From positions 51,299 through 115,298 of the forward strand of contig CAYHHA010000001.1 in NCBI GenBank assembly GCA_964356315.1: a stretch of DNA of 64,000 nt, in the 5' to 3' direction. Within the stretch, counting starts at the first letter, position 1, and every line of letters begins with the position of its first letter. This DNA is from an uncultured Gammaproteobacteria bacterium (GTDB taxonomy: Bacteria; Patescibacteriota; Microgenomatia; UBA10105; UBA927). Below, piece after piece: positions 28,407 to 54,381 of the stretch. Made by a program: the position numbers and the translations under genes. The notes under the pieces are model-generated. The model was not told the DNA's origin and did not search any database. It saw only the letters and a list, made by a program, of their open reading frames with translations.

Positions 28407-28411
28407 CCGCG

Positions 28412-29872: not shown

Positions 29873-29890
29873 ACTCTGATTATTCTACGG

Positions 29891-29959
29891 GCGAAACAAC
29901 TGTTTCGCAATAGCACAAAGCTCATCAGGACCGTGAAAACCTCCTATTTGAGTTTTCAC
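29891..29959. promoter_or_regulatory. Two palindromes in the divergent promoter region of the T4SS-like locus
   Basis: CGAAACAacTGTTTCG (29891-29906) and CGTGAAAAC-n11-GTTTTCACG (29931-29959), between minus-strand gene 28412..29872 and plus-strand gene 30041. Confidence 0.3.
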
Positions 29960-30040
29960 GAAATATTCATGTGGAAAAAACTATTTCTAATCGTTCGTGG
30001 TGTCCCGTGTTGGTCTTGGATTTTATGATAAGATGAACGC

Positions 30041-32227: not shown

Positions 32228-32282
32228 TGGTTCATGGTTCATGGTTCATGGTTCATGGTTCATGGTTCATGGTTCATGGTTC
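32227..32282. repeat. Perfect (ATGGTTC)x8 heptanucleotide array (the ATGAACC unit in inverted orientation), starting at the stop codon of the upstream ATPase gene
   Basis: Read directly; TAA stop of gene 30041..32227 overlaps the first unit. Confidence 0.95.
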
Positions 32283-32292
32283 AGGGGGAAGC

Positions 32293-32640
32293 ATGTTTAA
32301 TTTTGAAAAACTGCGTGTGTACGAGGATTCTTTGGAGTTTGTAGATCGTGTGTATGAGGAAATTTTCTTGTGGCCTAAAGATGAAAAATTTGGACTCGCT
32401 GATCAGTTTAAACGAGCTGCATATTCAATCACACTAAACATTGCAGAAGGAACAAGTAGGACAAAAAAGGATTTTAGCCGCTTCTTAGATTTATCCAGAG
32501 GGTCGTGTTATGAGTGTGTCTCAATACTTAAAATTGCACTGAACAGAAAGTATTTATCACCTGAAAAATATCTTGTGTTATATAATGATCTTGAAATTCT
32601 TTCAAAGAAAATAAGTGCTCTCAAAAATTCTCTACTATGA
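32293..32640 (+). CDS. Four-helix-bundle protein of the 23S-rRNA-IVS-protein / DGR Avd family
   Basis: MFNFEKLRVYEDSLEFVDRVYEEI...ADQFKRAAYSITLNIAEG...SRGSCYECVSIL matches the conserved pattern of PF05635-type four-helix bundle proteins. Start moved to ATG 32293, after the repeat-derived pseudo-N-terminus. Confidence 0.75.
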   Translation: MFNFEKLRVYEDSLEFVDRVYEEIFLWPKDEKFGLADQFKRAAYSITLNIAEGTSRTKKDFSRFLDLSRGSCYECVSILKIALNRKYLSPEKYLVLYNDLEILSKKISALKNSLL

Positions 32641-32720
32641 ACCATGAACTATGAACCATTAACAGTCTACTATCAACCATTAACAGTCTACTATCAACCA
32701 TGAACTACGAACCATGAACA
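32634..32720. repeat. Degenerate heptamer array (ACTATGA ACCATGA ACTATGA ACCATTA ACAGTCT ACTATCA x2 ... ACCATGA ACA), ATGAACC orientation, containing a 21-nt direct duplication
   Basis: Read directly. Includes the TGA stop of the 4HB gene and the ATG start of nadD; ccattaacagtctactatcaa is duplicated at 32657-32677 and 32678-32698. Confidence 0.85.
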
Positions 32721-39586: not shown

Positions 39587-39969
39587 GGTGATTGCAAGAT
39601 ATTAAATTTTGTTATGGTGTCTGTTGTCCCCGTGAATGATCCAATCACCCGGAGGATCAGATATGCGCTCACAATGACGACGAGTCCGATAATGGCATTG
39701 GTTAACGTTCCCTTGGCTTGTTCGAGCTTTTTTTGATCTCCTTGGGAAAAAAGAAACGAAAACCCACTAACGATGAACATGAGAAATAATGCTACAGCCC
39801 CAAGGGAAATGGCTGTTTTCACAAAATTTCGAAACAAATTTTCGAGCGACCCGATGGTTGCGACATCTGTTCCTTCGTATGTAGTTAGGGTTTCAGCTAT
39901 GGCATAGGGAGCAAGTCGTAGAGACATAATCCCGAGGGCTATATAGCTTGCAATTCTCTTTGCAGTCAT
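39583..39969 (-). CDS. TrbC/VirB2-like T4SS pilin paralog 1
   Basis: Signal/TM, then FSQGDQKKLEQAKGTLTNAIIGLVVIVSAYLIL: the shared pilin motif (x-GD-x-K-x3-A-x3-I-x2-A-x-IGL + second TM). Confidence 0.6.
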   Translation of the reverse strand: MTAKRIASYIALGIMSLRLAPYAIAETLTTYEGTDVATIGSLENLFRNFVKTAISLGAVALFLMFIVSGFSFLFSQGDQKKLEQAKGTLTNAIIGLVVIVSAYLILRVIGSFTGTTDTITKFNILQSP

Positions 39970-40092
39970 AGGTATATTGTAGCACGTACACTCTGGGATT
40001 ATGAATAATGAGCTGAAACTATTTAGGAATACTTACGTACACATCATGATATTTCCATGATTCATTCTTCATGATTCCCGATTCAGATTGTT

Positions 40093-40422
40093 TTAATAAG
40101 GCTTTGGGAAGTTTACTGCTCCACCGATGATGGTGACACCCAGGAAGTTCTGGATAAGGAGCATGACCGCCCATGCTGCGCCGACGATGATAAGTCCGAC
40201 GATGGCATGCGTGATTTTATTTCGGGCCGCTTCCATGCCTGCTTTGTCTCCACCTGAGGTGATCCATTGGATTCCTCCGAGTATGAGAAAGAAAAACGCA
40301 AGAAGTGCTGCGATAATAAGGAGTGTGCCAACGAGTGCACTAATAAGCTGGCCTATGTCGTTTATTTTCATGTTTGTCGGTTGGCCAATTGTGATTTGTG
40401 GATCTGCTGCAAATACTTTCAT
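40093..40422 (-). CDS. TrbC/VirB2-like T4SS pilin paralog 2
   Basis: ITSGGDKAGMEAARNKITHAIVGLIIVGAAW. Confidence 0.6.
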   Translation of the reverse strand: MKVFAADPQITIGQPTNMKINDIGQLISALVGTLLIIAALLAFFFLILGGIQWITSGGDKAGMEAARNKITHAIVGLIIVGAAWAVMLLIQNFLGVTIIGGAVNFPKPY

Positions 40423-40501
40423 ACGTTCCTCCTATTTTATATATCTATATTATATCCTATTTCTTATTGTTGCGCAAAAAGATAGAGACTGTCAATGCCA
40501 T

Positions 40502-40849
40502 TTATCGTCCAACCGTTGGAATTTGGAGGCTTTTGAGATCGAGACCGAAGAAGCCAGCGACCAACGTTGTCAGTGCAAACGAAGCGCCTACAATGATGAT
40601 ACCGATAATTGCATTAGTGATATTGTCTCGTGCCGCCTCTAGCTTCGTCTTATCTCCTCCAGCGCTAATCCATGATATGCCACCTGTAATCAGGTAAACG
40701 AATGCCAATAAAAATCCTGCAATAAATAGTGCTCCAACAAGACTGCTGATAAGTGACCCCAATGCTTTTCCGCCCTCTTGATAATTCCCGCCACCAATAG
40801 CGCGGGGGAGGATAGGGTTGGTAAGTGCTGCAAGAAATTTTTGGTGCAT
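40502..40849 (-). CDS. TrbC/VirB2-like T4SS pilin paralog 3
   Basis: ISAGGDKTKLEAARDNITNAIIGIIIVGASF. Confidence 0.6.
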   Translation of the reverse strand: MHQKFLAALTNPILPRAIGGGNYQEGGKALGSLISSLVGALFIAGFLLAFVYLITGGISWISAGGDKTKLEAARDNITNAIIGIIIVGASFALTTLVAGFFGLDLKSLQIPTVGR

Positions 40850-40850
40850 A

Positions 40851-41240
40851 TTATTTTAATTTGAATAATTCGTTTGTCGCCGGTCCTAACAATATATCGT
40901 ATCCGAAAAATTGTCCCGCCACAGCCAAAAGGCTCCATGATCCGATGACAATGACAAGGCCGACAAACGCATGAGTGATGCGGTCTCTGGCTGATGCAAT
41001 TTTTTTGGCATCTCCTCCAGCGCTGATCCACTCGTATCCTGCGAACAACAGCATGAATAAAAACCAAATGCTGGCAAATACGGTCAGCATGCCAACGATA
41101 TCGCTCACGTAATTTGTAATCGTTTCGACAGGATTGCTTATCGCTTTTCCCGCGAATGGTCCCAGTTCTCCGCCGTTTCCCTCTCCGATTGTTCCCAGAG
41201 ATTGTCCTAACGCTACTGATTTAGCAAGAAGTGTTGTCAT
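40851..41240 (-). CDS. TrbC/VirB2-like T4SS pilin paralog 4
   Basis: ISAGGDAKKIASARDRITHAFVGLVIVIGSW. Confidence 0.6.
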   Translation of the reverse strand: MTTLLAKSVALGQSLGTIGEGNGGELGPFAGKAISNPVETITNYVSDIVGMLTVFASIWFLFMLLFAGYEWISAGGDAKKIASARDRITHAFVGLVIVIGSWSLLAVAGQFFGYDILLGPATNELFKLK

Positions 41241-41241
41241 A

Positions 41242-41607
41242 TTAGTTTGGACCGTATATTGACGGGCTTAGGATGGCGCTTGGGCTACCAAAGAATACTT
41301 GACCCATCAGAGCGGCGATTGCAAAAGACCCCACAATCAACACAAGTCCGAGAAGTGATTGGTAGATCCTGTCCCATGCCGCGGATACTGACTTAGAATC
41401 ACCACCAGCGTTCATATACTGGAATCCTGCAATGATAAAGTTGAAAAACGCAAAAATCCCCGCAACCACAAACACCAGTCTTAAAATATTACTGAGAAAT
41501 AGGATAAGCCCGCCCCCTGCGCCTGCTGCTCCAATAATATTTTTATATTGTGCCGGTAGCGGGTTTGTGACCGTTCCGATAATATCGTCTGCGTAAACTT
41601 TAAACAT
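41242..41607 (-). CDS. TrbC/VirB2-like T4SS pilin paralog 5 (start set at internal Met to avoid overlap)
   Basis: MNAGGDSKSVSAAWDRIYQSLLGLVLIVGSF; the ORF-track N-terminal 30 aa overlap the next gene. Confidence 0.5.
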   Translation of the reverse strand: MFKVYADDIIGTVTNPLPAQYKNIIGAAGAGGGLILFLSNILRLVFVVAGIFAFFNFIIAGFQYMNAGGDSKSVSAAWDRIYQSLLGLVLIVGSFAIAALMGQVFFGSPSAILSPSIYGPN

Positions 41608-41618
41608 ATAATTAGCAT

Positions 41619-41954
41619 CTACCTCGGTAAAATACAAAGTGTATTTACACAATCTCCCTTTAAACCTGTTAGGGTCTCTATAATCTGAATGATCCAAAAC
41701 GATCCGAGTACAACGATAAGACCTATGACTGCGCCGGTAATTGCCTTTTTCCCCGACTCCATTTTTTTCGTATCTCCGGATCCTGCAGCTTGTATCATAC
41801 CAAATCCAGCGAAAACTAACAAAAGAAACGCGATAACACCTGCGAGCATAAAAGCATTTGGCACGATCACCGACACCAAATCACCTAGGTTGGTAAACTT
41901 TGTTATAGAGGGAAATTCAGTTCCAATATTCACAGCTGCAAATACGCGTTCCAT
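41619..41954 (-). CDS. TrbC/VirB2-like T4SS pilin paralog 6
   Basis: IQAAGSGDTKKMESGKKAITGAVIGLIVVLGSF. Confidence 0.55.
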   Translation of the reverse strand: MERVFAAVNIGTEFPSITKFTNLGDLVSVIVPNAFMLAGVIAFLLLVFAGFGMIQAAGSGDTKKMESGKKAITGAVIGLIVVLGSFWIIQIIETLTGLKGDCVNTLCILPR

Positions 41955-43575: not shown

Positions 43576-43682
43576 AAATAATCCAATAAACAATAAGTAA
43601 ATAAGGAATAAGGAATAAGGAATAAAAAAATAAGCAGTAAACAATAAGCAAATAAGGAATAACAAATAAACAATAAAGAAGT
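43576..43682. repeat. AATAA-rich degenerate heptamer array including (AATAAGG)x3, immediately upstream of the HMG-CoA reductase start
   Basis: Read directly: ...aaataaggaataaggaataaggaataaaaaaataagcag...aaataaggaataacaaataaacaataaagaagtATG. Confidence 0.8.
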
Positions 43683-44828
43683 ATGAATTTAAGAAATGTA
43701 CAATCGGTTTTGGAGAGGAGAATGCTACTTGAAAAAGAGCTTTCTGTGGATCTGTCGGTTATTGGGTCAAGCGGAATAAATACATCTATCGCTTCATCTA
43801 GACACTGCGAAAATATGATTGGGTACACGCAGATTCCTGTGGGAGTCGCAGGTCCATTGTTAATACAGAGCGAAAAAGGAAAAGACAAAAATTTCTATAT
43901 CCCACTGGCAACCACCGAAGGAGCGCTTGTTGCTTCTGTGAGTCGTGGGTGTAAAGCCATTACTAAGTCAGGGGGCGCGTTTGTGGATTCGTATAAAATC
44001 GGCGCAACAAGAAGCCCTGTTTTTAAGGTGGAAAATATCACTCAAAGCAAACATCTTTTTGAGTTTGTGAACGCCCATGAAGTTGATCTACAAAAGATTG
44101 CTTCCTCGACATCGTCTCACCTAGCTCTTACAAAAACCATGGTAACGGGCGTCGGGAAATATTTGTATCTGCGATTTTCGTTTGATACCCAGGATGCGAT
44201 GGGTATGAATATGGTTACAATCGCAGCAGACCGATTGTCTGTATATATCGAAGAACAAACCGGATTTCCTCTTATTGCCGTTGCCGGAAATATTGACGCT
44301 GATAAAAAACCTGCATGGTCTCATGCTATTTTACACCGGGGGATAGAGGCTTGGGCGGAGTGTACGATATGTGAGGAGGTTCTCCAAAAGGTGCTAAAAA
44401 CTACGGCAAAAAAAATCTATGAAGTCTGGTTGTCCAAATGTATGATCGGAAGCGCGCTGTCAGGATCAATCGGCTTCAATGCGCAGATGGCAAATATTCT
44501 TTCTGGATTGTTTATCGCAACTGGACAGGATCCCGCACATGTCGTTGAGGCAAGTACAGGCATGACCACAGCCGAAATTGTCGAGGGCACAAATGATTTA
44601 TATATAAGCGTTTTTCTTCCTGATCTCATGGTTGGAACGGTCGGTGGGGGAACAGGTCTTCCAACGCAAAAAGAAGCACTTTCTCTTATCGGCGAAACTA
44701 CAAGTCAAGGGTTTGCTCAAGTTGTCGCTGGCGCGGTATTGGCAGGAGAAATTTCCCTGCTTGCATCTCTTTCCGAGGGCACGCTGTCAAAGGCGCACAA
44801 GAGACTGGGAAGGGGAGAGTGCGTATGA
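43683..44828 (+). CDS. hmgA: Hydroxymethylglutaryl-CoA reductase, class I (archaeal/eukaryotic type catalytic domain)
   Basis: EGALVASVSRGCKAI, DAMGMNMVT and GTVGGGT class I signature motifs; 381 aa, no membrane domain. Confidence 0.85.
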   Translation: MNLRNVQSVLERRMLLEKELSVDLSVIGSSGINTSIASSRHCENMIGYTQIPVGVAGPLLIQSEKGKDKNFYIPLATTEGALVASVSRGCKAITKSGGAFVDSYKIGATRSPVFKVENITQSKHLFEFVNAHEVDLQKIASSTSSHLALTKTMVTGVGKYLYLRFSFDTQDAMGMNMVTIAADRLSVYIEEQTGFPLIAVAGNIDADKKPAWSHAILHRGIEAWAECTICEEVLQKVLKTTAKKIYEVWLSKCMIGSALSGSIGFNAQMANILSGLFIATGQDPAHVVEASTGMTTAEIVEGTNDLYISVFLPDLMVGTVGGGTGLPTQKEALSLIGETTSQGFAQVVAGAVLAGEISLLASLSEGTLSKAHKRLGRGECV

Positions 44829-45874
44829 AATCGGTCGGCATTACCTCATATGGGACCTATATCCCAACTTACCGGGTGAAGCTGGATGATATCGCGCGCG
44901 CGTGGGACAAAAATGGCGTTGAAATTCAAGGGTCGCTGGGTATAGCGGAAAAATCCGTTCCCGGCGTTGACGAAGATGCCGTAACCATTGCTCTTGAAGC
45001 CGGGGTAAACAGTCTTTACGGCCACAATGGAAAACCGACTGATATCGGTGTATTGTTTGTTGGAAGTGAGAGCCACCCTTATGCCGTCAACCCTACTTCA
45101 ACGATTGTTGGAGAATTATTAAGCATAGGAACATCGTACCTCGCGGCTGACTTACAATTTGCGTGCAAAGCGGCGACAGCAGGAATGCAGGCTATTGCGG
45201 GACTTGTCGCTTCTGGGCATGTTTCCTATGGCATGGTGATAGGCGCGGACACAGCGCAAAGCAAACCACACGACGCCCTCGAATACACCTCTGCGGCAGC
45301 AGGGGTTTCTTGCATTTTGGGATCAAAAGGGTGCATTGCAAATCTATTGGCATATACGTCGTATTCATCTGATACCCCAGATTTTTGGAGGCGCGATGGA
45401 TTAAAATACCCTTCTCATTCAGGGCGATTTACGGGAGAGCCTGCGTATTTCGCCCATGTCCTTGGCGCATCAAAACAACTTCTCGAGCAAGCGAAATTAA
45501 CACCAAAAGAATTTACGTACTGCGTATTTCATATGCCAAATGGAAAATTCCCACGGGATGTGGCAAGACGGTTAGGGTTTTCAAAAGAACAACTTGCCCC
45601 TTCTCTCACCGTGGATGACATAGGAAACCCATATTCAGCTTCTGCCCTGTTGGGTCTTGCGGCGGTTCTTGATATAGCGCAACCAGGGGATAAAATTTTT
45701 ATGGCTTCTTATGGGTCAGGAGCGGGGAGCGATGCCTTTGTTTGGGAGGTAACACCAGATATGGTAGCGTATAGAGAGGCGACCTCTGCAGTAAAAAAAA
45801 CAGTGAAACAACAAATAGAGCAAAAAGTGTATATCGATTATGTAGGATATTTAAAAAAGACACATAAGATTTAA
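44819..45874 (+). CDS. HMG-CoA synthase, short archaeal-type
   Basis: 351 aa thiolase-fold with SYGSGAGS near the C-terminus and an active-site Cys context (A-C-K-A-A-T); overlaps the hmgA end by 10 nt. Confidence 0.8.
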   Translation: MRMKSVGITSYGTYIPTYRVKLDDIARAWDKNGVEIQGSLGIAEKSVPGVDEDAVTIALEAGVNSLYGHNGKPTDIGVLFVGSESHPYAVNPTSTIVGELLSIGTSYLAADLQFACKAATAGMQAIAGLVASGHVSYGMVIGADTAQSKPHDALEYTSAAAGVSCILGSKGCIANLLAYTSYSSDTPDFWRRDGLKYPSHSGRFTGEPAYFAHVLGASKQLLEQAKLTPKEFTYCVFHMPNGKFPRDVARRLGFSKEQLAPSLTVDDIGNPYSASALLGLAAVLDIAQPGDKIFMASYGSGAGSDAFVWEVTPDMVAYREATSAVKKTVKQQIEQKVYIDYVGYLKKTHKI

Positions 45875-45877
45875 ATG

Positions 45878-45963
45878 TTATTGGTTCAGAGTTCATGGTT
45901 CATGGCAAAAAAAACATGTTGACCACCGGCTATGAACCATTAACCACCAACCATGAACCATTA
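45878..45963. repeat. Inverted heptamer arrays: (TGGTTCA-like)x3, A8-containing spacer, then (ACCATGA/ACCATTA/ACCACCA)x6, ending at the thiolase start
   Basis: Read directly: tggttcagagttcatggttcatgg caaaaaaaacatgttg accaccggctatgaaccattaaccaccaaccatgaaccattaaat ATG. Confidence 0.8.
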
Positions 45964-45966
45964 AAT

Positions 45967-47136
45967 ATGAATATCTATATAACAGGCGTATCGACAACAA
46001 AATTTGGAGAATTATGGGGGGTGTCCCCAAGGGTTTTGGCACGCGAGAGTGTGACCGGTGCACTTTCGGACGCGGGGCTTGAGCCACGCGATGTGGACGC
46101 ATTGTTTGTAGGGAATATGCTCTCTGGCATGCTTGGGGGACAAGAGCATTTGGGGGCATTTTTTGCAGAGGAATTAGGCCTTTCTATCCCCGCATTTAAA
46201 ATAGAAGGCGCATGCGCTTCTGGCGGGCTTGCCGCACACAACGCCGTTAACAGTGTCCTATCAGGACAATACAAAACAGTCGTTGTCTTAGGTGTAGAAA
46301 AAATGACCGACCATAAGCCAGAAGATGTCGCAACAGCACTAATGGGCGCAGGAAGCGAAGCCGAACGATTGTCCGGCATAACATTCCCAGGATTGTATGC
46401 AATGCTCGCTGGAGCGCACATGAGAGCGTTTGGGACTACTAGGGCGCAAATGGCGTCGGTTGCCGTGAAAAATCATTTTCACGCATTGGCAAATCCTAAT
46501 GCGCAGTTTCATAGCGCAATTACTGTGGAGCAGGTTCTTCGAAGCTCTTGTATTGCAGACCCATTAACACTTTTGGATTGTTCGCCAATATCTGATGGAG
46601 CGTCGGCGGTTGTTATATCCAGTAGTAAGGGGAATGGAAAAAGTAGTAAGGATTCTATTGAAATTCTTGCAAGTGTTGCGGCCACTGATACGCTGTCTCT
46701 GGCTCAGAGAGAAAGTCTTGTTGAGCTTAAGGCTACTCGAGTGGCAAGCAAAAAAGCATATGAAATTGCCGGAATTACTCCACCTGAAATCGATATCGCT
46801 GAAGTGCATGATTGTTTTACTATTGCAGAAATTCTCGCGATGGAAGATTTGGGGTTATACGAAAAAGGGATGGCCTCGGTATCGATTGAGAACGGCGAAA
46901 CAACACTTGGATCATCAAAACGTGTCGTAGTAAATACATCAGGAGGTCTAAAAGGATGCGGGCATCCGGTTGGTGCCACAGGGGTAAAGCAACTCGTGGA
47001 GATCGTCGAACAGCTACGTGGCTCTTGTGGAAAGAGACAAGTGGATGGTGCTCGTGTTGGGCTCACTCATAATGTGGGAGGAAGCGGGGCGACGGCAGTG
47101 GTGCACATACTTATGAATAATTCAATAAACAAATAA
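45967..47136 (+). CDS. Archaeal-type acetyl-CoA C-acetyltransferase (thiolase)
   Basis: 390 aa; MNIYITGVSTTKFGEL N-terminus and GACASGG active-site Cys region typical of archaeal/SCP2-type thiolases. The ORF-track N-terminal 24 aa are repeat-derived. Confidence 0.8.
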   Translation: MNIYITGVSTTKFGELWGVSPRVLARESVTGALSDAGLEPRDVDALFVGNMLSGMLGGQEHLGAFFAEELGLSIPAFKIEGACASGGLAAHNAVNSVLSGQYKTVVVLGVEKMTDHKPEDVATALMGAGSEAERLSGITFPGLYAMLAGAHMRAFGTTRAQMASVAVKNHFHALANPNAQFHSAITVEQVLRSSCIADPLTLLDCSPISDGASAVVISSSKGNGKSSKDSIEILASVAATDTLSLAQRESLVELKATRVASKKAYEIAGITPPEIDIAEVHDCFTIAEILAMEDLGLYEKGMASVSIENGETTLGSSKRVVVNTSGGLKGCGHPVGATGVKQLVEIVEQLRGSCGKRQVDGARVGLTHNVGGSGATAVVHILMNNSINK

Positions 47137-47196
47137 TCCAATAATCCAATGATAAATATATTAGAATATTAGTTTATTGGAATATTGGAGTATTAT
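47132..47196. repeat. AATAATCC direct repeats and inverted ATTGGAAT/ATTGGAGT partner flanking the RBS of the downstream gene
   Basis: aataatccaataatccaat at 47132-47150 versus attggaatattgga at 47176-47189; GGAG RBS at 47187-47190. Confidence 0.5.
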
Positions 47197-47197
47197 T

Positions 47198-47497
47198 ATG
47201 ATCAGTCCAGTAAAAGTGTGGAGAAACCAAAAATATGTTGCTAGAATGATCGGGAAAACCGGGGTTATTGTCGCGGTGACTATTATTCGGGTTCCTCCCG
47301 CAAATTTTGGGCATCAAGCGCCGTATGCTGTCGCTATCGTTTCTTTGGATGGTGGAGAATCCGTTTGCTCTCAGGTGGTTGATTGTTCTCTTTCGGATGT
47401 ATGTGTTGGAAAGAGGGTGGTGACGGTTGTGCGCAAAACCATCCAATCTGAAGTAGATGATGTTATCCCATACGGCATTAAAGTAAAGCTCGCGTAG
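47198..47497 (+). CDS. DUF35-like OB-fold protein (thiolase/HMG-CoA-synthase scaffold partner), lacking an N-terminal Zn-ribbon
   Basis: About 99 aa, beta-rich (VIVAVTIIRVPP...YAVAIVSLDGGESVCSQVVD...GKRVVTVVRK). Position immediately after the thiolase matches the archaeal thiolase/HMGCS/DUF35 gene triad. No CxxC pairs are present. Confidence 0.45.
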   Translation: MISPVKVWRNQKYVARMIGKTGVIVAVTIIRVPPANFGHQAPYAVAIVSLDGGESVCSQVVDCSLSDVCVGKRVVTVVRKTIQSEVDDVIPYGIKVKLA

Positions 47498-47502
47498 AAG
47501 TG

Positions 47503-47545
47503 GAGCTTCGTAGCTTAGAACTTAGAACTTAGAACTAAGCAGCCT
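47503..47545. repeat. (TAGAACT/GAACTTA)x3-4 heptamer array upstream of the mevalonate kinase gene
   Basis: agcttcgtagcttagaacttagaacttagaactaagcagcctaagc. Confidence 0.75.
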
Positions 47546-47558
47546 AAGCATACTAATT

Positions 47559-48503
47559 ATGGTAACCGTTTCTGTTCCAGGAAAAATTCATTTAATGGGT
47601 GAGCATGCCGTTGTCTACGGATATCCCGCTATACTTTCTGCAATAAATCTGCGTCTGCGGGTTTCGATATCCGAAGACTTAGAGGGGGAGGGAGTACGAG
47701 TACTTTCCCATGACCTTACCTCTCACGCGCAGTATGCCGCTGACTTTATGCTCAAATCTCTGCATATTGCGTCACCGGTTCCCTCAAAGATATCTATCGA
47801 ATCAGATATTCCGTCTGGGTATCATTTGGGATCTTCCGCCGCGATGGCAGTTGGTGTTACTGGAGCGATGATGTATTTTTATAAAAAAATTTGGAATCCA
47901 ATAAAAATAAATGAACTTGCCTATGAGATCGAAAAACAGCAACATGGAAATCCTTCTGGGGGAGACAATACCACCGTTACCATGGGGGGATTTATTTGGT
48001 ATCGCAAGGAACTTGAGTTTCTCAAAAGTATTTGGCAATTACCGTTTAAACCACATGCATCACTGCGACATTTTTTTCTCATAAACACAGGGAAACCCAA
48101 AGAATCCACCAAGGTGATGGTCGAACATGTCAGCGCTCTTGTATCCAAAGACCCATCCACATACGAGCATATTTTTCACGAAAATGAAATCCAGGTGAGA
48201 CGAATGACTGCAGCGCTAAAAAACGGGAGCAAGGATGAGGTGATCCACGCAATGCAAAAAGGAGAGTGCACACTAGAGCAGATGGGGGTAGTGAGCGAAT
48301 TCGTGCGTCCTAGTATTCGGGAGATCGAAAAGAATGGGGGAGCCGTGAAAATATTAGGCGGGGGAGGGGTAAAAAAACAGGTTGGATTCATGTTGTGCTA
48401 TCACGAAGATCCGCAACTCGTCGAAGCGCTTATTAGACCATATAATTTTTCGCTCCAGAAGATTTCTCTTGGAGAAGAAGGGGTACGGCTAGATGAAAAA
48501 TAA
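47559..48503 (+). CDS. mvk: Mevalonate kinase (GHMP family)
   Basis: PGKIHLMGEHAVVYG N-terminal motif; PSGYHLGSSAAMAV GHMP ATP-binding motif. Confidence 0.8.
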   Translation: MVTVSVPGKIHLMGEHAVVYGYPAILSAINLRLRVSISEDLEGEGVRVLSHDLTSHAQYAADFMLKSLHIASPVPSKISIESDIPSGYHLGSSAAMAVGVTGAMMYFYKKIWNPIKINELAYEIEKQQHGNPSGGDNTTVTMGGFIWYRKELEFLKSIWQLPFKPHASLRHFFLINTGKPKESTKVMVEHVSALVSKDPSTYEHIFHENEIQVRRMTAALKNGSKDEVIHAMQKGECTLEQMGVVSEFVRPSIREIEKNGGAVKILGGGGVKKQVGFMLCYHEDPQLVEALIRPYNFSLQKISLGEEGVRLDEK

Positions 48504-49977
48504 TCAATCTATCACCGCGAGTGCTCCTGGAAAATTATTGTTACTGGGGGATCACGCGATTGTCTACGGACAGCCCTGTATTGTCACTGCAGTCAATCAG
48601 CGGATGTTCGTGACGGTGTCCCAAACAAATGACGATCTATTGACCATTAACGCTCCTGATGTAGAAATTTCCGGATATCAAAAAGACATGCATGCGCTTA
48701 CCCAAGGGGATCTGCCGAAAGGGGTCAGATTTATTGAGCATGCCACCTATAATTATTTCAAAGCGTACCCGCATGAGGGTGGCGTTTCGATATCCACTGC
48801 ATCAGAATTTTCCAGCACGTTTGGTTTCGGTTCATCATCTGCGACAGTCGTCGCTGTTATAGTCTCGCTGTCTCAATTGTTTGAACAACATCTTGATAAC
48901 CGGGCGGTATTTGACCTTGCGTATAAAACGGTTTTAGATGTGCAGGGAGTTGGGAGTGGTTTTGATGTGGCCTCTGCAATCTGGGGAGGGACAATCTTTT
49001 ATTCAAACAAAGGAGAGCATATCGAGCCATTATCTATTGGAACGATTCCCTTGGTCGTCGGGTATAGTGGCACAAAAGCAGACACGACGACCATGGTCCA
49101 AAGTGTTGCCGAAAAGTATAAAGCGAATACCGAGAAAATGGACCGGATCTTTCTAGCAATCGGACAATTTGTAAACGATGCGAAAGAAAAATTACTTGAG
49201 GGCGATTGGGAGAGGGTGGGGAAGCTGATGGAGTTTAATCAGGAATACCTTCGGGACATTGGGGTTAGTACTGAAAAACTTGAAGGGATGATCCACGCAG
49301 CAAAACAAGCGGGAGCATACGGCGCAAAATTATCCGGAGCTGGAGGTGGGGATTGCATGATCGCCCTGGTCCCAGAGAGTCGTGCGCAGTCTATTTCAGA
49401 AGCTATGACAGCTGCTGGGGGACTGGTTTTGCCTGTTATCTGTGGGGCTCAAGGCGTTCGTGTTGAAACAACAGATAACCAAGATGAGCAGCTAATAGTG
49501 ATAAATGATCAGGATGAGATTATTGACTATCGATCTCGAAGTGATTGTCATTCTGATCCATCGCTTCTTCATAGAACAGTTGGCGCGGTAATACTAAATG
49601 ATTCTGGAGAAATTCTTCTGCAAAAGCGAAGTAAAACAAAAGATATGGATCCGGGGTTTTGGGGAATATCTGCAGCAGGTCATGTATCTCGTGGGCAAAC
49701 AGATGAAGAAGCGGTCAAAAGGGAAGTGAAAGAGGAGCTCGGCGTCGTAGTGGATTTTGTTTTTGTCGGCAATATGATGGTTCGAAACGAGAAAGAGTCA
49801 GAAAGGGCCGCGATATTTAAAGGGTTACATAATGGACCATTTGAAATAAATCCCCAGGAAGTTGATGAAATAGTTTTTTTGAATCCTAAAAAAATTCAGG
49901 CCCATATCGCGTCCAAAGCAATGGTGTTTACCAAAGCGGCGATCCAGGCGTTAACACTCACAGGAGCGCTTTCATGA
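48493..49977 (+). CDS. GHMP kinase (putative phosphomevalonate kinase) fused to a C-terminal IPP-isomerase-type-1-like Nudix domain
   Basis: N-terminal APGKLLLLGDHAIVYG plus FGFGSSSATVVAV GHMP motifs. C-terminal LLHRTVGAVILNDSGEILLQKRSKTKDMDPGFWGISAAGHVSRGQTDEEAVKREVKEELGV is colinear with E. coli Idi ([41 protein letters not shown]), but with Ala in place of the catalytic Cys. Confidence 0.7.
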   Translation: MKNNQSITASAPGKLLLLGDHAIVYGQPCIVTAVNQRMFVTVSQTNDDLLTINAPDVEISGYQKDMHALTQGDLPKGVRFIEHATYNYFKAYPHEGGVSISTASEFSSTFGFGSSSATVVAVIVSLSQLFEQHLDNRAVFDLAYKTVLDVQGVGSGFDVASAIWGGTIFYSNKGEHIEPLSIGTIPLVVGYSGTKADTTTMVQSVAEKYKANTEKMDRIFLAIGQFVNDAKEKLLEGDWERVGKLMEFNQEYLRDIGVSTEKLEGMIHAAKQAGAYGAKLSGAGGGDCMIALVPESRAQSISEAMTAAGGLVLPVICGAQGVRVETTDNQDEQLIVINDQDEIIDYRSRSDCHSDPSLLHRTVGAVILNDSGEILLQKRSKTKDMDPGFWGISAAGHVSRGQTDEEAVKREVKEELGVVVDFVFVGNMMVRNEKESERAAIFKGLHNGPFEINPQEVDEIVFLNPKKIQAHIASKAMVFTKAAIQALTLTGALS

Positions 49978-50957
49978 AAATCACCGCGCAGGCCCCAGCA
50001 AATATTGCATTTTTAAAATACTGGGGGAAAACTGATGATGCACTCCGGATCCCTGCAAACTCGTCGTTCTCGATGAATCTTTCTGAGGCAATTACCACAA
50101 CTACCGTAGAGTTTTCAGACGCACTGTCTCGGGATGTTGTTGAGTTTGAGGGGGATTCCCTTTCAGAACATGAAATAAGCCGTATTGTTCATTTCCTTGA
50201 CCTAGTTCGCGACAGAGCGGGGGTCCGCCTGTTTGCGCGAGTACGAACGAAAAATTCTTTCCCGAAAGGAGCAGGGGTTGCATCTTCTGCATCAGGATTT
50301 GCTGCGCTTGCTGTGGCATCAGTCAACGCAATCGGACTTTCTCTCTCGGAAAAGGAATTATCTATTCTTGCTCGGCTTGGATCTGGTTCCGCATGCAGAA
50401 GCATCCCTGATGGGTTTGTTAGGTGGGAAAAAGGTCAGGGGACGAGCGACACCTCCTTTGCTCACTCTGTTGCGCCAGCTGATTTTTGGGATATACGCGA
50501 TATCCTTTGCATTGTGGATCCTGCGATGAAAAAGGTGTCCACAACAGATGGGCATACATTTGCTTCAACAAGCCCATTATGGAACAAGAGAATGGAGCAG
50601 TTGCCGTCTGTTGACGTAGCCATGATGGATGCGTTTTGGAAAAAAGACTTCTCTATATTTGGGCAAATAGTTGAGGGTGAATGCGATAACATGCATGCGG
50701 TAATGCAGTCACAGACCCCTCCACTCTATTACTGGTCTGATGCGACTGTTAATATCATGGAAAAAGTAAAAGAGTGGCGCGCACAAGGGGTATCCGTTTA
50801 TTATACGATCGATGCGGGAGCCAACGTGCATGTGCTTTGCGAACAAAAAAACGAAGCTGTTGTTGCACAGCTAGCTGGGAATTGTGCGGGAGTTCTGCGC
50901 ATTGTAATAAACCGACCGGCAAACGGCGCGAGAGTAATTCACTCTCACTTATTTTAA
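49974..50957 (+). CDS. mvaD: Diphosphomevalonate decarboxylase
   Basis: N-terminal APANIAFLKYWGK motif; GHMP fold; 4-nt overlap with the upstream kinase gene. Confidence 0.85.
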   Translation: MKITAQAPANIAFLKYWGKTDDALRIPANSSFSMNLSEAITTTTVEFSDALSRDVVEFEGDSLSEHEISRIVHFLDLVRDRAGVRLFARVRTKNSFPKGAGVASSASGFAALAVASVNAIGLSLSEKELSILARLGSGSACRSIPDGFVRWEKGQGTSDTSFAHSVAPADFWDIRDILCIVDPAMKKVSTTDGHTFASTSPLWNKRMEQLPSVDVAMMDAFWKKDFSIFGQIVEGECDNMHAVMQSQTPPLYYWSDATVNIMEKVKEWRAQGVSVYYTIDAGANVHVLCEQKNEAVVAQLAGNCAGVLRIVINRPANGARVIHSHLF

Positions 50958-50987
50958 CCATGAACAATGAACCATGAACCATGAACA
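50958..50987. repeat. (AACCATG/AACAATG)x4 heptamer array whose last unit supplies the uppS ATG
   Basis: ttaACCATGAACAATGAACCATGAACCATGAACACTAAG; uppS begins ATGAACACT. Confidence 0.8.
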
Positions 50988-51691
50988 CTAAGTCACACAC
51001 AATTCCCAAGCACATTGCCATCATTATGGATGGAAACAGGCGGTGGGCCAAAGAGCACCATCTTCCGATTCTTGAGGGTCACAGAAGAGTTGTCGATACG
51101 ATTTTGGAGCCCCTTATCGAGCATGCGTCTGACTGTGGCATATCCTATCTGACGCTCTGGGCATGGTCAACAGAAAACTGGAAACGGGACAGCACCGAGG
51201 TTCAAGGGATTATGAATCTCCTCCGGTACGGGTTTAAAACATTTGGAAATCGAATGCACAAAAAAGGCATCCGAATACGGATCATTGGTGACACGAGTCA
51301 ATTTGATGAGGATATTCAAACGCTTCTTTCATCATATGTTGAAAAAACAAAAGAGAATACGAAGATCACTGTTGTGTTTGCTCTTAATTACGGCGGGAGA
51401 GATGAAATTATTCGAGCAATACATTCTATGAGCCAAGATCCAAGATCCAAAATCCAAGATCCAAAAATATCTGAAGAATATTTTTCACAATTTTTAGACA
51501 CTGCTGGCATTCCAGATCCGGATATCATTGTGCGAACCGGAGGAGAGAAGCGACTAAGTGGGTTTTTGCTCTGGCAGAGTCAGTATAGTGAATTGTTTTT
51601 TGAAGATTGGCATATGCCGGATTTTATCGCGGAAAAATTGGATGAGATTCTGTCCGAGTTTGAGCATCGTCAGCGGAGGTTTGGGGCGTAA
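50981..51691 (+). CDS. uppS: Undecaprenyl-diphosphate synthase (cis-prenyltransferase)
   Basis: IIMDGNRRWAKE and ALNYGGR...RTGGEKRLSGFLLWQ motifs. Confidence 0.9.
   Translation: MNTKSHTIPKHIAIIMDGNRRWAKEHHLPILEGHRRVVDTILEPLIEHASDCGISYLTLWAWSTENWKRDSTEVQGIMNLLRYGFKTFGNRMHKKGIRIRIIGDTSQFDEDIQTLLSSYVEKTKENTKITVVFALNYGGRDEIIRAIHSMSQDPRSKIQDPKISEEYFSQFLDTAGIPDPDIIVRTGGEKRLSGFLLWQSQYSELFFEDWHMPDFIAEKLDEILSEFEHRQRRFGA
51434..51468. repeat. In-frame (CAAGATC/CAAAATC)x5 heptamer array inside the uppS coding sequence
   Basis: agccaagatccaagatccaaaatccaagatccaaaaat encodes the SQDPRSKIQDPKIS insert in a variable loop of UppS. Confidence 0.75.
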
Positions 51692-51694
51692 GGG

Positions 51695-52039
51695 TTATCC
51701 AAAAATTGCTTTGATTGCGTCAAATCCAAAGACGAACCCAAAGATTTGCACCATCCAATACGCAGAGAAGATAATGAAGAATCCCAAAATAGCATAGGTA
51801 ATTTGTTGTTTCCCTTTTTCAAGACTTTTCGCATCTCCAGCGCTGGTTAAAAATGTGAATCCTCCCAAAAGAAGCATTAAAAGAAGTCCAATGCCACCAA
51901 ACAGAAATACCAATTTCATAGCGCTAGATACAAGACCGCCGACACCCATGCCTGCAGCGCCACCTTCGAGAGGGCCATTTACAGAAGCGGAAGTGCCTAC
52001 CCACGGAAGTGTGAGGTTTTGCGCAAGTTGTTTTATCAT
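51695..52039 (-). CDS. TrbC/VirB2-like T4SS pilin paralog 7 (distal copy)
   Basis: LTSAGDAKSLEKGKQQITYAILGFFIIFSAYW: the same motif as the six-gene array at 39.6-42 kb. Confidence 0.6.
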   Translation of the reverse strand: MIKQLAQNLTLPWVGTSASVNGPLEGGAAGMGVGGLVSSAMKLVFLFGGIGLLLMLLLGGFTFLTSAGDAKSLEKGKQQITYAILGFFIIFSAYWMVQIFGFVFGFDAIKAIFG

Positions 52040-52042
52040 AAT

Positions 52043-52507
52043 TTATTTAAATCCTGGTATTCCAATAATATTAACTCCAATAAACTGTAGGATAAATATA
52101 GAGAAAATAATCAGAAGAAGTCCTGTGATTGCAGATGTGACAAGTTCTCGACCAGCATTTAGTTGCTCTGGATTTCCGGCACTGGTCATAATCTGAAGCC
52201 CGCCAAATAAAATTAACAAGAACGCAATGCCACCCGCTATTCCCATAGCGAACCTGATTACTTTTTCCAACAAACTATTCGGATTAGATTGAATATCATC
52301 AATACAGCCAATCGCTGTCCAAACTCCTGGAGAAGTGTCATCTCCCATACAACTCTCGCAACCTGATTTTTGCTTAGGGTCTGTGATCGTGCTACAGGCC
52401 CTCGTGTTTATCTCAAAGGCCGTTTTCTCTGCTTTTACGACAAAAACATGTCCTACTAAAGCTGTGAATACTATGAAAAAAGCCGTAACAACGCCAAATA
52501 TACGCAT
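52043..52507 (-). CDS. TrbC/VirB2-like pilin paralog 8 with Cys-rich N-terminal extension
   Basis: Signal peptide, a segment with five Cys, then IMTSAGNPEQLNAGRELVTSAITGLLLIIFSIF. Confidence 0.5.
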   Translation of the reverse strand: MRIFGVVTAFFIVFTALVGHVFVVKAEKTAFEINTRACSTITDPKQKSGCESCMGDDTSPGVWTAIGCIDDIQSNPNSLLEKVIRFAMGIAGGIAFLLILFGGLQIMTSAGNPEQLNAGRELVTSAITGLLLIIFSIFILQFIGVNIIGIPGFK

Positions 52508-52570
52508 GTCTTAAGTGTACCAAATTACCCGAGGGAAAGAAAGAATGATAGAATGGAAGAGGCCTTATAT

Positions 52571-52729
52571 AATAAGGAATAATAAATAATAAATAAGGAA
52601 TAATAAAGAATAAAATAAGGAATACATACATCATGAAGTATCAAACACAAAAAATTGCACATAGAGTGTTCCTCATTTGTATATTTGTTGCTTGTTATTC
52701 CTTATTCCTTATTCCTTATTCCTTATTCC
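52571..52729. repeat. Inverted heptamer arrays (GGAATAA-type upstream, (TTATTCC)x5 downstream) bracketing the start codon of the SpoIID-like gene, within the divergent promoter shared with pilin paralog 8
   Basis: 52571-52625 aataaggaataataaataataaataaggaataataaagaataaaataaggaatac; 52695-52729 ttattccttattccttattccttattccttattcc. The latter encodes SLFLIPYSLFLIS of the signal peptide. Confidence 0.8.
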
Positions 52730-54381
52730 TTATTTCCCCGGTTCACGCTGCGGAATGTGATCCAAGTTGCGCAAACGCGATTGAATGCCGGGATAAAATT
52801 GCCAAATGTAAAGAAGCATGGGATCAGATGGAGTCAGCAAAACGCCCCCATGTCGATGCGCTCAAAAAAATGGAGTCGGATATCGCGATATTTCAAAATC
52901 GCATAAAATCTATCGAAATTTCTGTTGTCCAAAAAGCCTCTGCGATCGCAAAAGGGGAAGAACAGCTCGGAGAGCTCTTGATTCTGGCAAACCGCAGGAT
53001 ACGGGAATTTTATATAAATAATACGCGATTTACGCCCCTTTCCACATTTTTAGCTTCTACATCCATAGGTTCGATGTTGCGTGTGATGGCATACCAAAAT
53101 GCTGTGGTAAACACCGATAAAAAGGCTATTACCCAAACGGCAATTTCAGTAAAAGATCTGGAGGATAAGAAAAAATCCCTCGAACAGGAAAAAAGCTCCC
53201 TTGCGTATCTAAAAGAAGAAACAGACAAGAGAGCCGCGTCCGTGCGAAAGCTCGTGGGCGATGCGGACGCATATCAGAGTAAATTAACCGGCATCATCGC
53301 AAATCTTTCCACGTTGCAACAGTCTATTTTGAGCGCAAAAACGGGGACGTTTCAAACAAGTGTCGGTGATGTTCCGCTGGCAGATGATACTGCTTCCAGG
53401 CCGGATTATAATCCTGGATTTTCACCGGCGTTCGCCGCATTTAGTTTTGGCGCCCCGCACTTTAAAGGAATGAGCCAGTATGGAGCGTTTGGGCGGGCAA
53501 AAAGTGGCCAAAATTATGAACAGATACTCAAGGCCTACTATGGATCGGGGATAGAAATACGTGATCACAATCCGGATGCACAAATAAATGTGACAGGGTA
53601 CGGATCCTACTCTTTGGAAGACTATGCAAAACGGATCTATGAAATGCCAGGTAGCTGGGGGGACGAAGGGGGAATGGAGGCTCTGAAGGCTCAGGCGATC
53701 GCGGCGAGAAGCTATGCACTGGCGCGGGGAAGCACTATTTGTGCAACCGAGAGTTGTCAGGTGTTTAAACCGGGAGCAAAAGGTGGAAAATGGGAGGAGG
53801 CGGTAAATCAAACGCGAGGGAAAGTGGTGTATGCAAACGGATCGCCATTTTCAACATGGTATGCATCAACCAGTGGAGGATATCAGGAGTCATACAGCGC
53901 AAATGGCTATACAACACCTGGGTTTTGGGATACGGCAAATGGGAGAAGTGGATGGACCAGTCAAGCGTATGAAAAAATTGGAGGAAGTCCTTGGTTTTAT
54001 AAAGGGTGGTGGAAGGATAGATCTGGAGACAGTTGTGGCAGAAGTCACCCGTGGTTAAACAGTGAAGAAATGGCAGACATCCTAAACGCATGGTCCGCCT
54101 TATTCAAAGGGGGCGGGGATAGCTCTCGAGTGACTCCGAAGGGATCGTGTTGGGGTGGGAATCCGTATAACACCGACGAACTGCGGTCGATCGGAGGATT
54201 TTCTAGTGTCTCCGGAGTGAATGTGACCTATTCCGACGGTGGCGTAACTGCTAACGTGACGTTTGAAACAAACAAAGGAAGTGTGACAATAAATGGAAAC
54301 GATTTTTATAAATCGTTTAATCTACGAGCTCCTGGGAGGATTTCTCTAAAGTCTGGACTCTATAACATTGAGAAAAAGTAA
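52633..54381 (+). CDS. SpoIID/LytB-domain protein with signal peptide and N-terminal coiled coil
   Basis: EALKAQAIAARSYALARGS...CATESCQVF motif typical of SpoIID/LytB (lytic transglycosylase/amidase enhancer) domain; coiled-coil segment at residues 60-230. Confidence 0.65.
   Translation: MKYQTQKIAHRVFLICIFVACYSLFLIPYSLFLISPVHAAECDPSCANAIECRDKIAKCKEAWDQMESAKRPHVDALKKMESDIAIFQNRIKSIEISVVQKASAIAKGEEQLGELLILANRRIREFYINNTRFTPLSTFLASTSIGSMLRVMAYQNAVVNTDKKAITQTAISVKDLEDKKKSLEQEKSSLAYLKEETDKRAASVRKLVGDADAYQSKLTGIIANLSTLQQSILSAKTGTFQTSVGDVPLADDTASRPDYNPGFSPAFAAFSFGAPHFKGMSQYGAFGRAKSGQNYEQILKAYYGSGIEIRDHNPDAQINVTGYGSYSLEDYAKRIYEMPGSWGDEGGMEALKAQAIAARSYALARGSTICATESCQVFKPGAKGGKWEEAVNQTRGKVVYANGSPFSTWYASTSGGYQESYSANGYTTPGFWDTANGRSGWTSQAYEKIGGSPWFYKGWWKDRSGDSCGRSHPWLNSEEMADILNAWSALFKGGGDSSRVTPKGSCWGGNPYNTDELRSIGGFSSVSGVNVTYSDGGVTANVTFETNKGSVTINGNDFYKSFNLRAPGRISLKSGLYNIEKK

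Follow-up and report, generated by a model that had tools for sequence, protein, structure and literature searches.

A conserved mevalonate operon of a Gottesmanbacteria-like Microgenomates bacterium encodes a ribbon-less DUF35 protein and a kinase-fused Nudix domain lacking the catalytic cysteine of isopentenyl diphosphate isomerase

The DNA considered here is a stretch of 64,000 nucleotides (64 kb) from contig CAYHHA010000001.1, hereafter referred to as the window. Between 43683 and 51691 on the forward strand, the list of open reading frames (ORFs) and their translations revealed eight intact ORFs which run in one direction with short gaps or overlaps; overlapping junctions occur at 44825/44828, 48493/48503 and 49974/49977. 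An original prediction, made from the letters of the DNA and without database searches, had placed eight genes of a mevalonate pathway here, and all of them were located at these positions and found to be intact. The region very likely represents a vertically inherited mevalonate operon of a Gottesmanbacteria-like member of the Microgenomates, which leads from acetyl-CoA to isopentenyl diphosphate (IPP) and further to UppS. Two of its products, a DUF35 protein and a Nudix domain fused to a kinase, lack the Zn ribbon and the catalytic Cys of isopentenyl diphosphate isomerase, respectively. All eight proteins are present in the sequence collection, none of them under a name. The gene families were assigned by scoring Pfam and NCBIfam models against the cutoffs of these models, and the operon comprises the following features:

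43576..43682, no strand: AT-rich leader 5' of the operon with AATAAGG-type 7-nt tandem repeats (arrays at 43584-43676)
43683..44828, + strand: class I (NADPH-type) 3-hydroxy-3-methylglutaryl-CoA (HMG-CoA) reductase, HMGR; PF00368 366.7 bits; an alternative start at 43722 gives 368 aa
44825..45874, + strand: archaeal-type HMG-CoA synthase, HMGCS, 349 aa; NF003274 and TIGR00748; the start overlaps the HMGR stop
45882..45961, no strand: inverted pair of ATGAACC-type 7-nt arrays in the gap between the HMGCS and thiolase genes; predicted RNA hairpin
45967..47136, + strand: archaeal-type acetoacetyl-CoA thiolase, 389 aa from the likely start; NF004720; the ORF opens at 45895
47198..47497, + strand: 99-aa DUF35-family protein with an OB fold (OB), presumed thiolase/HMGCS scaffold; PF01796 49.4 bits
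47559..48503, + strand: K1, a 314-aa GHMP kinase of the mevalonate kinase (MVK) family, either an MVK or an MVK-derived phosphomevalonate kinase (PMK); TIGR00549 162.3 bits
48493..49470, + strand: K2, the kinase part (~326 aa) of a 494-aa fusion protein, an archaeal-MVK-like GHMP kinase; TIGR00549 203.6 bits
49471..49977, + strand: Nudix domain fused to K2, similar to isopentenyl diphosphate isomerase (IDI) and YfcD ('type B'); PF00293 60.2 bits
49974..50957, + strand: decarboxylase of the mevalonate diphosphate decarboxylase (MVD) family, probably a diphosphomevalonate decarboxylase (DMD); TIGR01240 262 bits
50981..51691, + strand: UppS, undecaprenyl-diphosphate synthase (a cis-prenyltransferase); PF01255 241.9 bits, TIGR00055 238.4 bits

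One genome per GTDB species was scanned for the fusion protein, which yielded 468 stretches encoding a relative, and the best 80 loci were annotated with the proteins of the window. The order HMGR-HMGCS-thiolase-OB-K1-K2 was colinear in 56 of these 80 loci and occurred in many phyla of the Candidate Phyla Radiation (CPR), including Gottesman-, Davies-, Roizman-, Woese-, Levyi- and Shapirobacteria and some Parcubacteria. Across the 80 loci, K2 is usually followed at its 3' side by MVD and then by UppS, and OB was present along with the thiolase gene, directly adjoining it, in 66 of 69 loci. In one related locus (L087), the flanking synteny of sigma70, Yip1, operon and pilin genes was also the same as in the window. 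The G+C content of the operon is 0.45-0.46 and falls within the range of 0.33-0.48 displayed by the window. With its unremarkable composition and a gene order kept in many CPR phyla, the operon shows no trace of having been transferred recently, and recent horizontal transfer was ruled out on these grounds. Earlier work had already described the gene set: according to Hoshino and Gaucher (2018; PMC6107057), the mevalonate genes of CPR occur in the majority of Microgenomates, are typically syntenic with the cis-prenyltransferase gene (cis-IPPS), and form a pathway mixing archaeal-type with bacterial-type features. The same paper reports phylogenies in which the CPR enzymes form one clade congruent with the CPR species tree. 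The original prediction had taken the operon as unusual and suggestive of horizontal acquisition. This could not be upheld, as such operons are the norm in Microgenomates, were published in 2018, keep their synteny across CPR phyla and do not deviate in G+C content. Thus, the operon is ordinary for its lineage and already published, and is unusual only relative to cultivated bacteria.

HMGR scored 374 bits with the class I model TIGR00533, which is below the equivalog cutoff of 441.8, compared to 63 bits with the class II model TIGR00532. Its translation contains the catalytic Glu/Lys/Asp/His motifs (TTEG, DKKP, DAMGMNM and GTVGGG), and the best match in the PDB was the class I HMGR of Methanothermococcus thermolithotrophicus (6HR7, 300 bits). 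HMGCS passed both archaeal models, NF003274 with 473.8 bits (cutoff 244) and TIGR00748 with 420.8 bits (cutoff 353), whereas only 119.6 bits were reached with the bacterial mvaS model TIGR01835 (cutoff 360). Its best PDB match was 6ESQ_I (349.3 bits), and the catalytic Glu/Cys/His/Asn tetrad is retained within GSESHPY, FACKAA, VFHMPNG and IGNPYS. The SCP-x-like thiolase passed NF004720 (475.6 bits, cutoff 420) with a match to residues 26-408 of the long ORF and stayed below the cutoff of 600 of the M. thermolithotrophicus-specific model NF053570 (460.6 bits). Its best PDB match was 6ESQ_A (314.5 bits), and both the catalytic Cys (GACASG) and the HDCF motif are present. Because the first 24 codons of the long ORF consist of a 7-nt repeat array and homology sets in at residue 26 only, the thiolase likely starts at 45967 and not at 45895. 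A class I HMGR, with no grouping with class II enzymes, as well as archaeal-type HMGCS and thiolase had been predicted, and the model scores and structure matches agree with all three assignments.

The small ORF downstream of the thiolase gene matched PF01796 (OB_ChsH2_C; cutoff 27.1) with the score given above. Its family comprises at least 155 homologue clusters, nearly all of about 99 aa, with 22 invariant columns, and an N-terminus M-x-SPVKVWRNQK that is conserved across 50 aligned homologues places the gene start at 47198. The AlphaFold model (pLDDT 89) consists of a helix followed by a five-stranded OB fold. Its best fold match in the PDB was 6ESQ_E (E 1.8e-7, TM 0.70, 32% identity), followed by the DUF35 subunits of MucABC, PhlABC, Ltp2-ChsH2 and benzoylsuccinyl-CoA thiolase. 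This structure comparison corroborated the proposal that the ORF encodes an OB-fold DUF35 protein without a Zn ribbon. The family profile matched 6ESQ_E with 68.7 bits, aligning positions 18-99 with residues 48-128, and positions 5-23 (VKVWRNQK...) weakly matched residues 3-21 (VRSWRHMK...); residues ~21-47 of 6ESQ_E have no counterpart in the 99-aa protein. Since the profile alignment keeps both the N-terminal helix and the OB fold, the Zn ribbon was lost when some 27 internal residues were deleted, and not through truncation of the N-terminus. No paired CxxC motifs, which form the knuckles of a rubredoxin-like Zn ribbon, were found in the 99-aa protein or in the 66 OB ORFs of related loci. 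As judged from the sequences, the ribbon-less DUF35 is a feature of all 66 sampled CPR loci that carry the gene. By analogy to the archaeal complex, the 99-aa protein probably holds thiolase and HMGCS together. If it functions as such a scaffold, it would give rise to a minimal thiolase/HMGCS channeling complex that does without the Zn ribbon.

Of the two GHMP kinases, K2 passed the MVK model TIGR00549 with 203.6 bits while K1 (162.3 bits) remained less than 1 bit under the cutoff of 163.05. The PMK models were failed by both, TIGR01220 with 90.8 bits for K2 and 54.9 bits for K1 (cutoff 165.7), and NF040957 with 85.9 and 30.8 bits, respectively (cutoff 500). Family profiles of K1 and K2 were built from the related loci and searched against PDB structures. 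The K2 profile matched M. mazei MVK (4HAC) with 214 bits versus 62 bits for S. pneumoniae PMK (1K47), and the K1 profile scored 110-150 bits with MVK structures (146 bits with that of M. mazei) versus 43 bits with 1K47. The catalytic residues Lys9, His16, Ser135 and Asp138 of M. mazei MVK correspond to K9, H16, S133 and D136 in K1, and the same Lys/His/Ser/Asp set is conserved as K14, H21, S155 and D158 in K2. In addition, the named homologues of the fusion kinase in public databases are called mevalonate kinase. K1 and K2 are, by these comparisons, MVK paralogues, with the fused K2 being closest to archaeal MVK. The first kinase had indeed been predicted to be a mevalonate kinase, which fits K1 with its catalytic set despite the marginally missed cutoff; the fused kinase had been predicted to be a PMK, which the profile scores and the names of the homologues contradict. 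Either paralogue may act as PMK, as both look equally MVK-like when model scores, PDB searches and catalytic residues are taken together.

The decarboxylase passed TIGR01240 with 262 bits (cutoff 171), compared to 171 bits with the model for phosphomevalonate decarboxylase (PMD), NF040704, which has a cutoff of 475, and it contains the catalytic Asp/Ser/Arg motifs DAGAN, SSAS and SACRS. PDB entry 6N0X is the PMD of Anaerolinea thermophila (PMC9254496), and Thomas et al. turned PMD specificity into DMD specificity by mutagenesis, as told in that article. The engineered variant 6N0Z differs from wild-type 6N0X by an Asn-to-Lys exchange in 'YWGN' and a His-to-Met exchange in 'TQGH', and from these sequence differences we inferred two positions that may serve as specificity markers, 19 and 194 in the window enzyme. 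At the first, the window enzyme carries Lys19; Lys or Arg occurs here in 71 of 75 CPR decarboxylases, and Asn in the Anaerolinea PMD. At the second, His, Gln and Met are found in roughly equal shares among the 75. Lys19, the two kinases and the absence of an isopentenyl phosphate kinase (IPK) from the window together favor diphosphomevalonate as substrate, and the enzyme is probably a DMD that is a close cousin of PMD. The gene is followed by that for UppS, as predicted, which exceeded the TIGR00055 cutoff of 109.55 by far and carries the motifs DGNRRWA and RTGGE..LSGFLLWQ.

The NUDIX match covers residues 359-469 of the 494-aa fusion protein and the domain begins near residue 327, so that the predicted fusion of a GHMP kinase and a Nudix domain is indeed a single protein. 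The domain failed the IDI models PRK03759 (81.9 bits, cutoff 127) and TIGR02150 (52.4 bits, cutoff 105.8) and also the YfcD model (78.1 bits, cutoff 152). By sequence, its PDB matches were the Nudix hydrolases YfcD of E. coli (66 bits, whole domain) and DR0079 of D. radiodurans (47 bits), and IDIs (37-45 bits, N-terminal half only). The AlphaFold model (pLDDT 95.8) was closest in fold to YfcD (2FKB; TM 0.87, rmsd 1.4 Å, 31% identity), followed by human and E. coli IDI (TM 0.82) and DR0079 (TM 0.80). YfcD is not known to have a firmly assigned substrate. The domain sits in the sub-group of IDI, YfcD and DR0079 within the Nudix fold, and no clustering with ADP-ribose or MutT hydrolases was found. 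Upon alignment to E. coli Idi, Ala395 takes the position of Cys67 and Glu437 that of Glu116. The predicted replacement of Cys by Ala and retention of Glu thus held, while the assignment to IDI did not, given the failed IDI cutoffs and YfcD as the best match by sequence and fold. Among 120 homologues of the fusion, the five IDI metal ligands H353, H360, H397, E435 and E437 (corresponding to His25, His32, His69, Glu114 and Glu116) are kept in 116-120, and position 395 is occupied by Ala (90), Gly (20) or Ser (8), but never by Cys. The invariant Cys352 was considered as a relocated catalytic Cys and ruled out, because this 'CH' motif also occurs in human IDI1, which has its catalytic Cys besides.

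IDI-like genes near the mevalonate operons of CPR fall into three main types. Type A is a canonical type 1 IDI (IDI-1) with Cys67, Arg83, Tyr104 and Trp161. Type B, to which the window domain belongs, is fused to K2 in 26 of the 80 loci and forms a separate gene adjoining K2 in 12; in another locus (L086:74-2759), K2 and MVD genes come after an IDI-1::type B fusion. Type C is marked by an inserted HPLH, by an invariant Cys that immediately precedes the ExE motif (CENE), and by Tyr104 and Trp161 in the absence of Cys67; Daviesbacteria-like loci encode it as a protein of its own, and in two loci it is joined to the N-terminus of UppS. Type C occurs downstream of MVD in many loci, such as L053; examples of this type are:

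L052:12817-14082
L070, ~12756 onward
L053:12226-12828, - strand

Type B is linked to the pathway by its fusion or adjacency to K2 and by the fusions of its relatives to UppS or canonical IDI. In 24 of the 26 fused loci, no other IDI-like gene was found within 10 kb, and the 64 kb of the window hold no Nudix/IDI-like ORF besides the fused one. Decay of the ExE motif in type B was seen in 3 of 5 loci with another IDI-like gene versus 3 of 33 loci without one (Fisher p = 0.02, without phylogenetic correction). A search with the canonical IDI of locus L031 retrieved only two close relatives and then IDIs of Bacteroidota with about 45% identity, a weak and negative piece of evidence suggesting that this IDI was acquired sporadically from Bacteroidota-like donors.

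Taken together, the gene content suggests the following route, in which the order of events and the partners of each step are proposed. Archaeal-type thiolase and HMGCS would condense three acetyl-CoA to HMG-CoA, with the 99-aa DUF35 protein, consisting of the N-terminal helix and the OB fold, serving as scaffold as in the channeling complex of M. thermolithotrophicus. Class I HMGR would reduce HMG-CoA to mevalonate, and K1 and K2 would carry out two phosphorylations, one of them acting as a PMK that is non-orthologous to known PMKs. The MVD-family enzyme would then decarboxylate diphosphomevalonate to IPP, the K2-fused Nudix domain may act on C5 isoprenoid diphosphates, and UppS would elongate an allylic primer with IPP to the undecaprenyl carrier lipid, on which the synthesis of peptidoglycan and surface glycans draws. 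The same window encodes proteins that consume undecaprenyl phosphate (Bac_transf, WecG, Wzy_C and glycosyltransferases). A more far-reaching version combines three elements, a Nudix domain that is the sole IPP/dimethylallyl diphosphate (DMAPP) isomerase without Cys, Tyr and Trp, a PMK derived from an MVK paralogue, and a decarboxylase with an acquired Lys. This combination is possible, and we advance it with reserve. In such an isomerase, the His3Glu2 site would bind the metal, Glu437 would act as the acid, and a glutamate of the Nudix box or a metal-bound water as the base. The domain would then represent an extant link from Nudix hydrolases to type 1 IDI, and the operon a eukaryote-type lower pathway caught near its origin. 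The ribbon-less DUF35, the Cys-less Nudix domain, and the MVK-type 'PMK' together with a PMD-like decarboxylase are common to hundreds of CPR sequences.

Several findings weigh against the route from acetyl-CoA to UppS as proposed here. Models, family profiles and PDB searches identified no orthologue of any known PMK among the operon kinases. The best PDB match of the decarboxylase was the Anaerolinea PMD 6N0X with 284 bits, compared to 209 bits for E. faecalis mevalonate diphosphate decarboxylase and at most 209 bits for other DMDs, and at the His-to-Met position of 6N0Z the window enzyme keeps His194 of PMD. In locus L087 (5704-8180), the operon comprises K1, MVD and a type B Nudix gene that stands alone (171 aa), and it has no K2 kinase; a second kinase may thus be dispensable in some cases, or K2 may be encoded at another place in that genome. 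Neither a trans-prenyltransferase nor an IPK or type 2 IDI was found among the genes of the window, which leaves the allylic primer without an evident source there. The decarboxylase similarity and the single kinase of L087 would fit a Chloroflexi/haloarchaeal route, in which MVK and PMD yield isopentenyl phosphate and a further kinase, an MVK paralogue or an IPK encoded elsewhere, makes IPP. The placement of CPR near Chloroflexota (PMC11052028) and the IPK homologues that PMC6107057 mentions for some CPR point in the same direction. However, the 6N0Z-type Lys or Arg at position 19 in nearly all CPR enzymes, two kinases in nearly every operon, the lack of an IPK in the window, and a decarboxylase that passes TIGR01240 and stays far under the NF040704 cutoff render this route unlikely. 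If the decarboxylase uses the diphosphate and no PMK orthologue is present, one of the MVK paralogues must act as PMK. A CPR 'PMK' that is an MVK paralogue, along with an 'MVD' that is closest to PMD, bears on current models that derive the eukaryote-type lower pathway from the haloarchaeal one. Quite unlikely, too, is an exceptional archaeal-flavored operon, horizontally acquired or a deep relic, whose second kinase is a PMK fused to type 1 IDI, as originally predicted. In its favor, the upper-pathway enzymes and DUF35 have their nearest structures in methanogens, the Nudix domain is colinear with Idi and keeps the metal ligands and the Glu, and deep ancestry is discussed by Hoshino and Gaucher (PMC6107057). 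These points are countered by an operon that is the rule in Microgenomates with its order kept across CPR phyla and an unremarkable composition, a fused kinase that is MVK-like and not PMK-like, and a domain below the IDI cutoffs that has lost Cys67, Tyr104 and Trp161. The presence of PhlA, PhlB, PhlC and MucC among the structural relatives might finally suggest that thiolase, HMGCS and DUF35 have been repurposed into an acyltransferase of the PhlABC or MucABC kind and do not form HMG-CoA, which is extremely improbable. The archaeal complex scored higher (349 versus 193 bits for HMGCS, 314 versus 95 bits for the thiolase), and the genes are positioned between HMGR and the lower-pathway genes. 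In addition, repurposed complexes have lost the Glu/Cys/His/Asn tetrad and the HDxF motif (PMC12960953), which are intact here, and PhlABC-like repurposing was ruled out on the grounds of these motifs and the scores.

For the Nudix domain, a further set of findings speaks against a role as isomerase. The domain has lost the Tyr104 segment and has no Trp161. The Nudix box (G396-x5-Q402-x7-R410-E411-V-K-E414-E415-L-G417-V) is intact, with R, E, E, E and G in 113-120 of the 120 homologues; position 402 with Gln in 84 and Glu in 33 is the only departure from GX5EX7REUXEEXGU. In true IDIs the box is degraded to RRxxYE (PMC5389931). A canonical IDI and the K2::type B fusion are both present in L031 and L032, IDI-1::type B tandem fusions were obtained in the representative search (P0241, P0243, P0246 and P0254), and many proteins of ~170 aa that stand alone show the type B residue pattern, some of them in non-isoprenoid contexts. 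The domain might accordingly be an active diphosphatase that converts IPP/DMAPP or diphosphomevalonate to the monophosphate and serves as overflow valve or regulator coupled to the kinase, with the true IDI located elsewhere. The invariant box, the best sequence and fold matches to YfcD and DR0079, the Tyr104-region deletion and GPF motif in common with YfcD, and the occurrence outside isoprenoid contexts or alongside and fused to a canonical IDI all favor such a hydrolase, and we regard it as a realistic possibility. A hydrolase undoing the product of the pathway, however, is hard to justify as a conserved, kinase-fused member of the operon. The lack of another IDI-like gene within 10 kb of most fused loci, the sparse distribution of type 2 IDI in CPR, as stated in PMC6107057, and the five invariant metal ligands that YfcD does not have argue in the same sense. 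The lack of a second such ORF in the window, the ExE decay in loci with another IDI-like gene, and the seemingly sporadic canonical IDI of L031 likewise suggest that type B may itself be the IDI. On balance, we tentatively favor a Cys-independent IPP/DMAPP isomerase, whereas a diphosphatase acting on C5 diphosphates or diphosphomevalonate appears less probable and a non-catalytic ligand sensor, ligand-binding domain or other function rather unlikely. The gene that metabolic reconstructions of CPR routinely list as 'IDI-I' is devoid of the residues that make an isomerase and looks like a hydrolase, so that it does not readily account for the DMAPP supply of these organisms.

The closest named homologues of the fusion protein belong to Candidatus Gottesmanbacteria, the Microgenomates group and the Patescibacteria group, and the host, as also indicated by the tmRNA gene of the window and the T4SS-pilin genes beside the operon, is a Gottesmanbacteria-like bacterium within the Microgenomates (CPR/Patescibacteria). 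Many loci with the CPR operon (L003, L004, L006 and some 35 more) stem from metagenome-assembled genome records titled 'uncultured Gammaproteobacteria bacterium'. This title conflicts with the gene content and looks like a systematic mislabeling in that submission series. The window carries dnaA and dnaN as well as a cluster similar to a type IV secretion system (T4SS), and is probably the replication-origin region, as indicated by dnaA and dnaN. These genes and those of the T4SS_pilin family are located at 19784-22470, 25745-32227, 39583-41954 and 51695-52507. Besides VirB4/TraG-like ATPases, the T4SS-like cluster includes a PrgI-like protein and an M23 peptidase. The mevalonate operon is bracketed by small genes of the T4SS_pilin family, of which the window has at least eight. 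A tmRNA gene is present within the window, and two large ORFs (34083-38033, 1316 aa; 38051-39586, 511 aa) had no Pfam match at E <= 0.001. Scans of the operon identified promoter-like sites no more frequently than in shuffled sequence and no convincing terminator.

The window also contains tandem arrays, perfect or nearly so, in which 7-nt units (ATGAACC, AATAAGG, CTTAGAA and CCAAGAT) are repeated at gene boundaries and in some cases inside ORFs, at the following positions:

28358-28406, 32227-32283, 32637-32719, 45882-45961 and 50956-50986: 7-nt arrays
43584-43676, 47514-47536, 51433-51464, 52569-52624 and 52695-52734: further 7-nt arrays

The start of uppS falls into the final unit of an ATGAACC array, and the signal-peptide region of a SpoIID-like ORF is encoded by a heptamer array. 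For the inverted ATGAACC pair at 45882-45961, which has a 26-nt spacer, a hairpin of -26 kcal/mol was predicted (z = -3.15). The ATGAACC array was not found in 90 related loci and is thus specific to this genome. At 32227-32719, a gene for a 137-aa protein of the 23S_rRNA_IVP family (PF05635, 104 bits) lies between inverted ATGAACC arrays; its 5' end has eight units, and some 12 degenerate ones follow right after the stop codon. This gene and its inverted arrays may constitute a small mobile or invertible cassette, of which the pair at 45882-45961 may be an empty site.

Compared to the cluster of Hoshino and Gaucher (PMC6107057), the gene set is the same, and its order is confirmed here in 56 of the 80 loci. 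The second kinase is named PMVK and the Nudix gene IDI-I in that paper, and our residue-level comparison backs neither name. Its searchable text contains no mention of DUF35, of a kinase::Nudix fusion or of absent catalytic residues, and a literature search on the kinase::Nudix fusion, Cys-less IDI, YfcD function and DUF35 in CPR returned nothing relevant. The ribbon-less DUF35, the Cys-less, kinase-fused Nudix domain, and the MVK-type 'PMK' with its PMD-like decarboxylase are residue-level features that no paper we found describes. Enzymes of M. thermolithotrophicus are the best solved-structure matches of HMGR, HMGCS, thiolase and DUF35 alike. As for the archaeal thiolase/HMGCS/DUF35 channeling complex (6ESQ/6ET9), the three genes are adjacent here as well and the catalytic motifs are intact; its subunit 6ESQ_E, in contrast, has 130 aa and a Zn ribbon, which the 99-aa protein lacks. 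The catalytic set of archaeal MVK (M. mazei, 4HAC/6MDE) is common to K1 and K2, but unlike in M. mazei the kinases occur as two tandem paralogues, and K2 bears a C-terminal Nudix domain. The Anaerolinea PMD and the classical DMDs belong to the same MVD family of GHMP fold, and the window enzyme is closer to PMD, yet carries Lys19. With type 1 IDI, the Nudix domain has in common the fold along with its N-terminal extension, residues that correspond to His25, His32, His69, Glu114, Glu116, Arg51, Lys55 and Glu87, and the 'CH...LLHR' motif of human IDI1. It differs from type 1 IDI in that Cys67 is replaced by Ala, Gly or Ser, the Tyr104 segment and Trp161 are gone, and Arg83 is changed to Glu within an intact Nudix box. 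The Tyr104-region deletion, the GPF motif and the full REUxEE box are common to YfcD, DR0079 and the window domain. In YfcD, however, four ligands that type B retains invariantly (corresponding to His25, His69, Glu114 and Glu116) are missing, and unlike YfcD the domain of the window is fused to a kinase within an isoprenoid operon.

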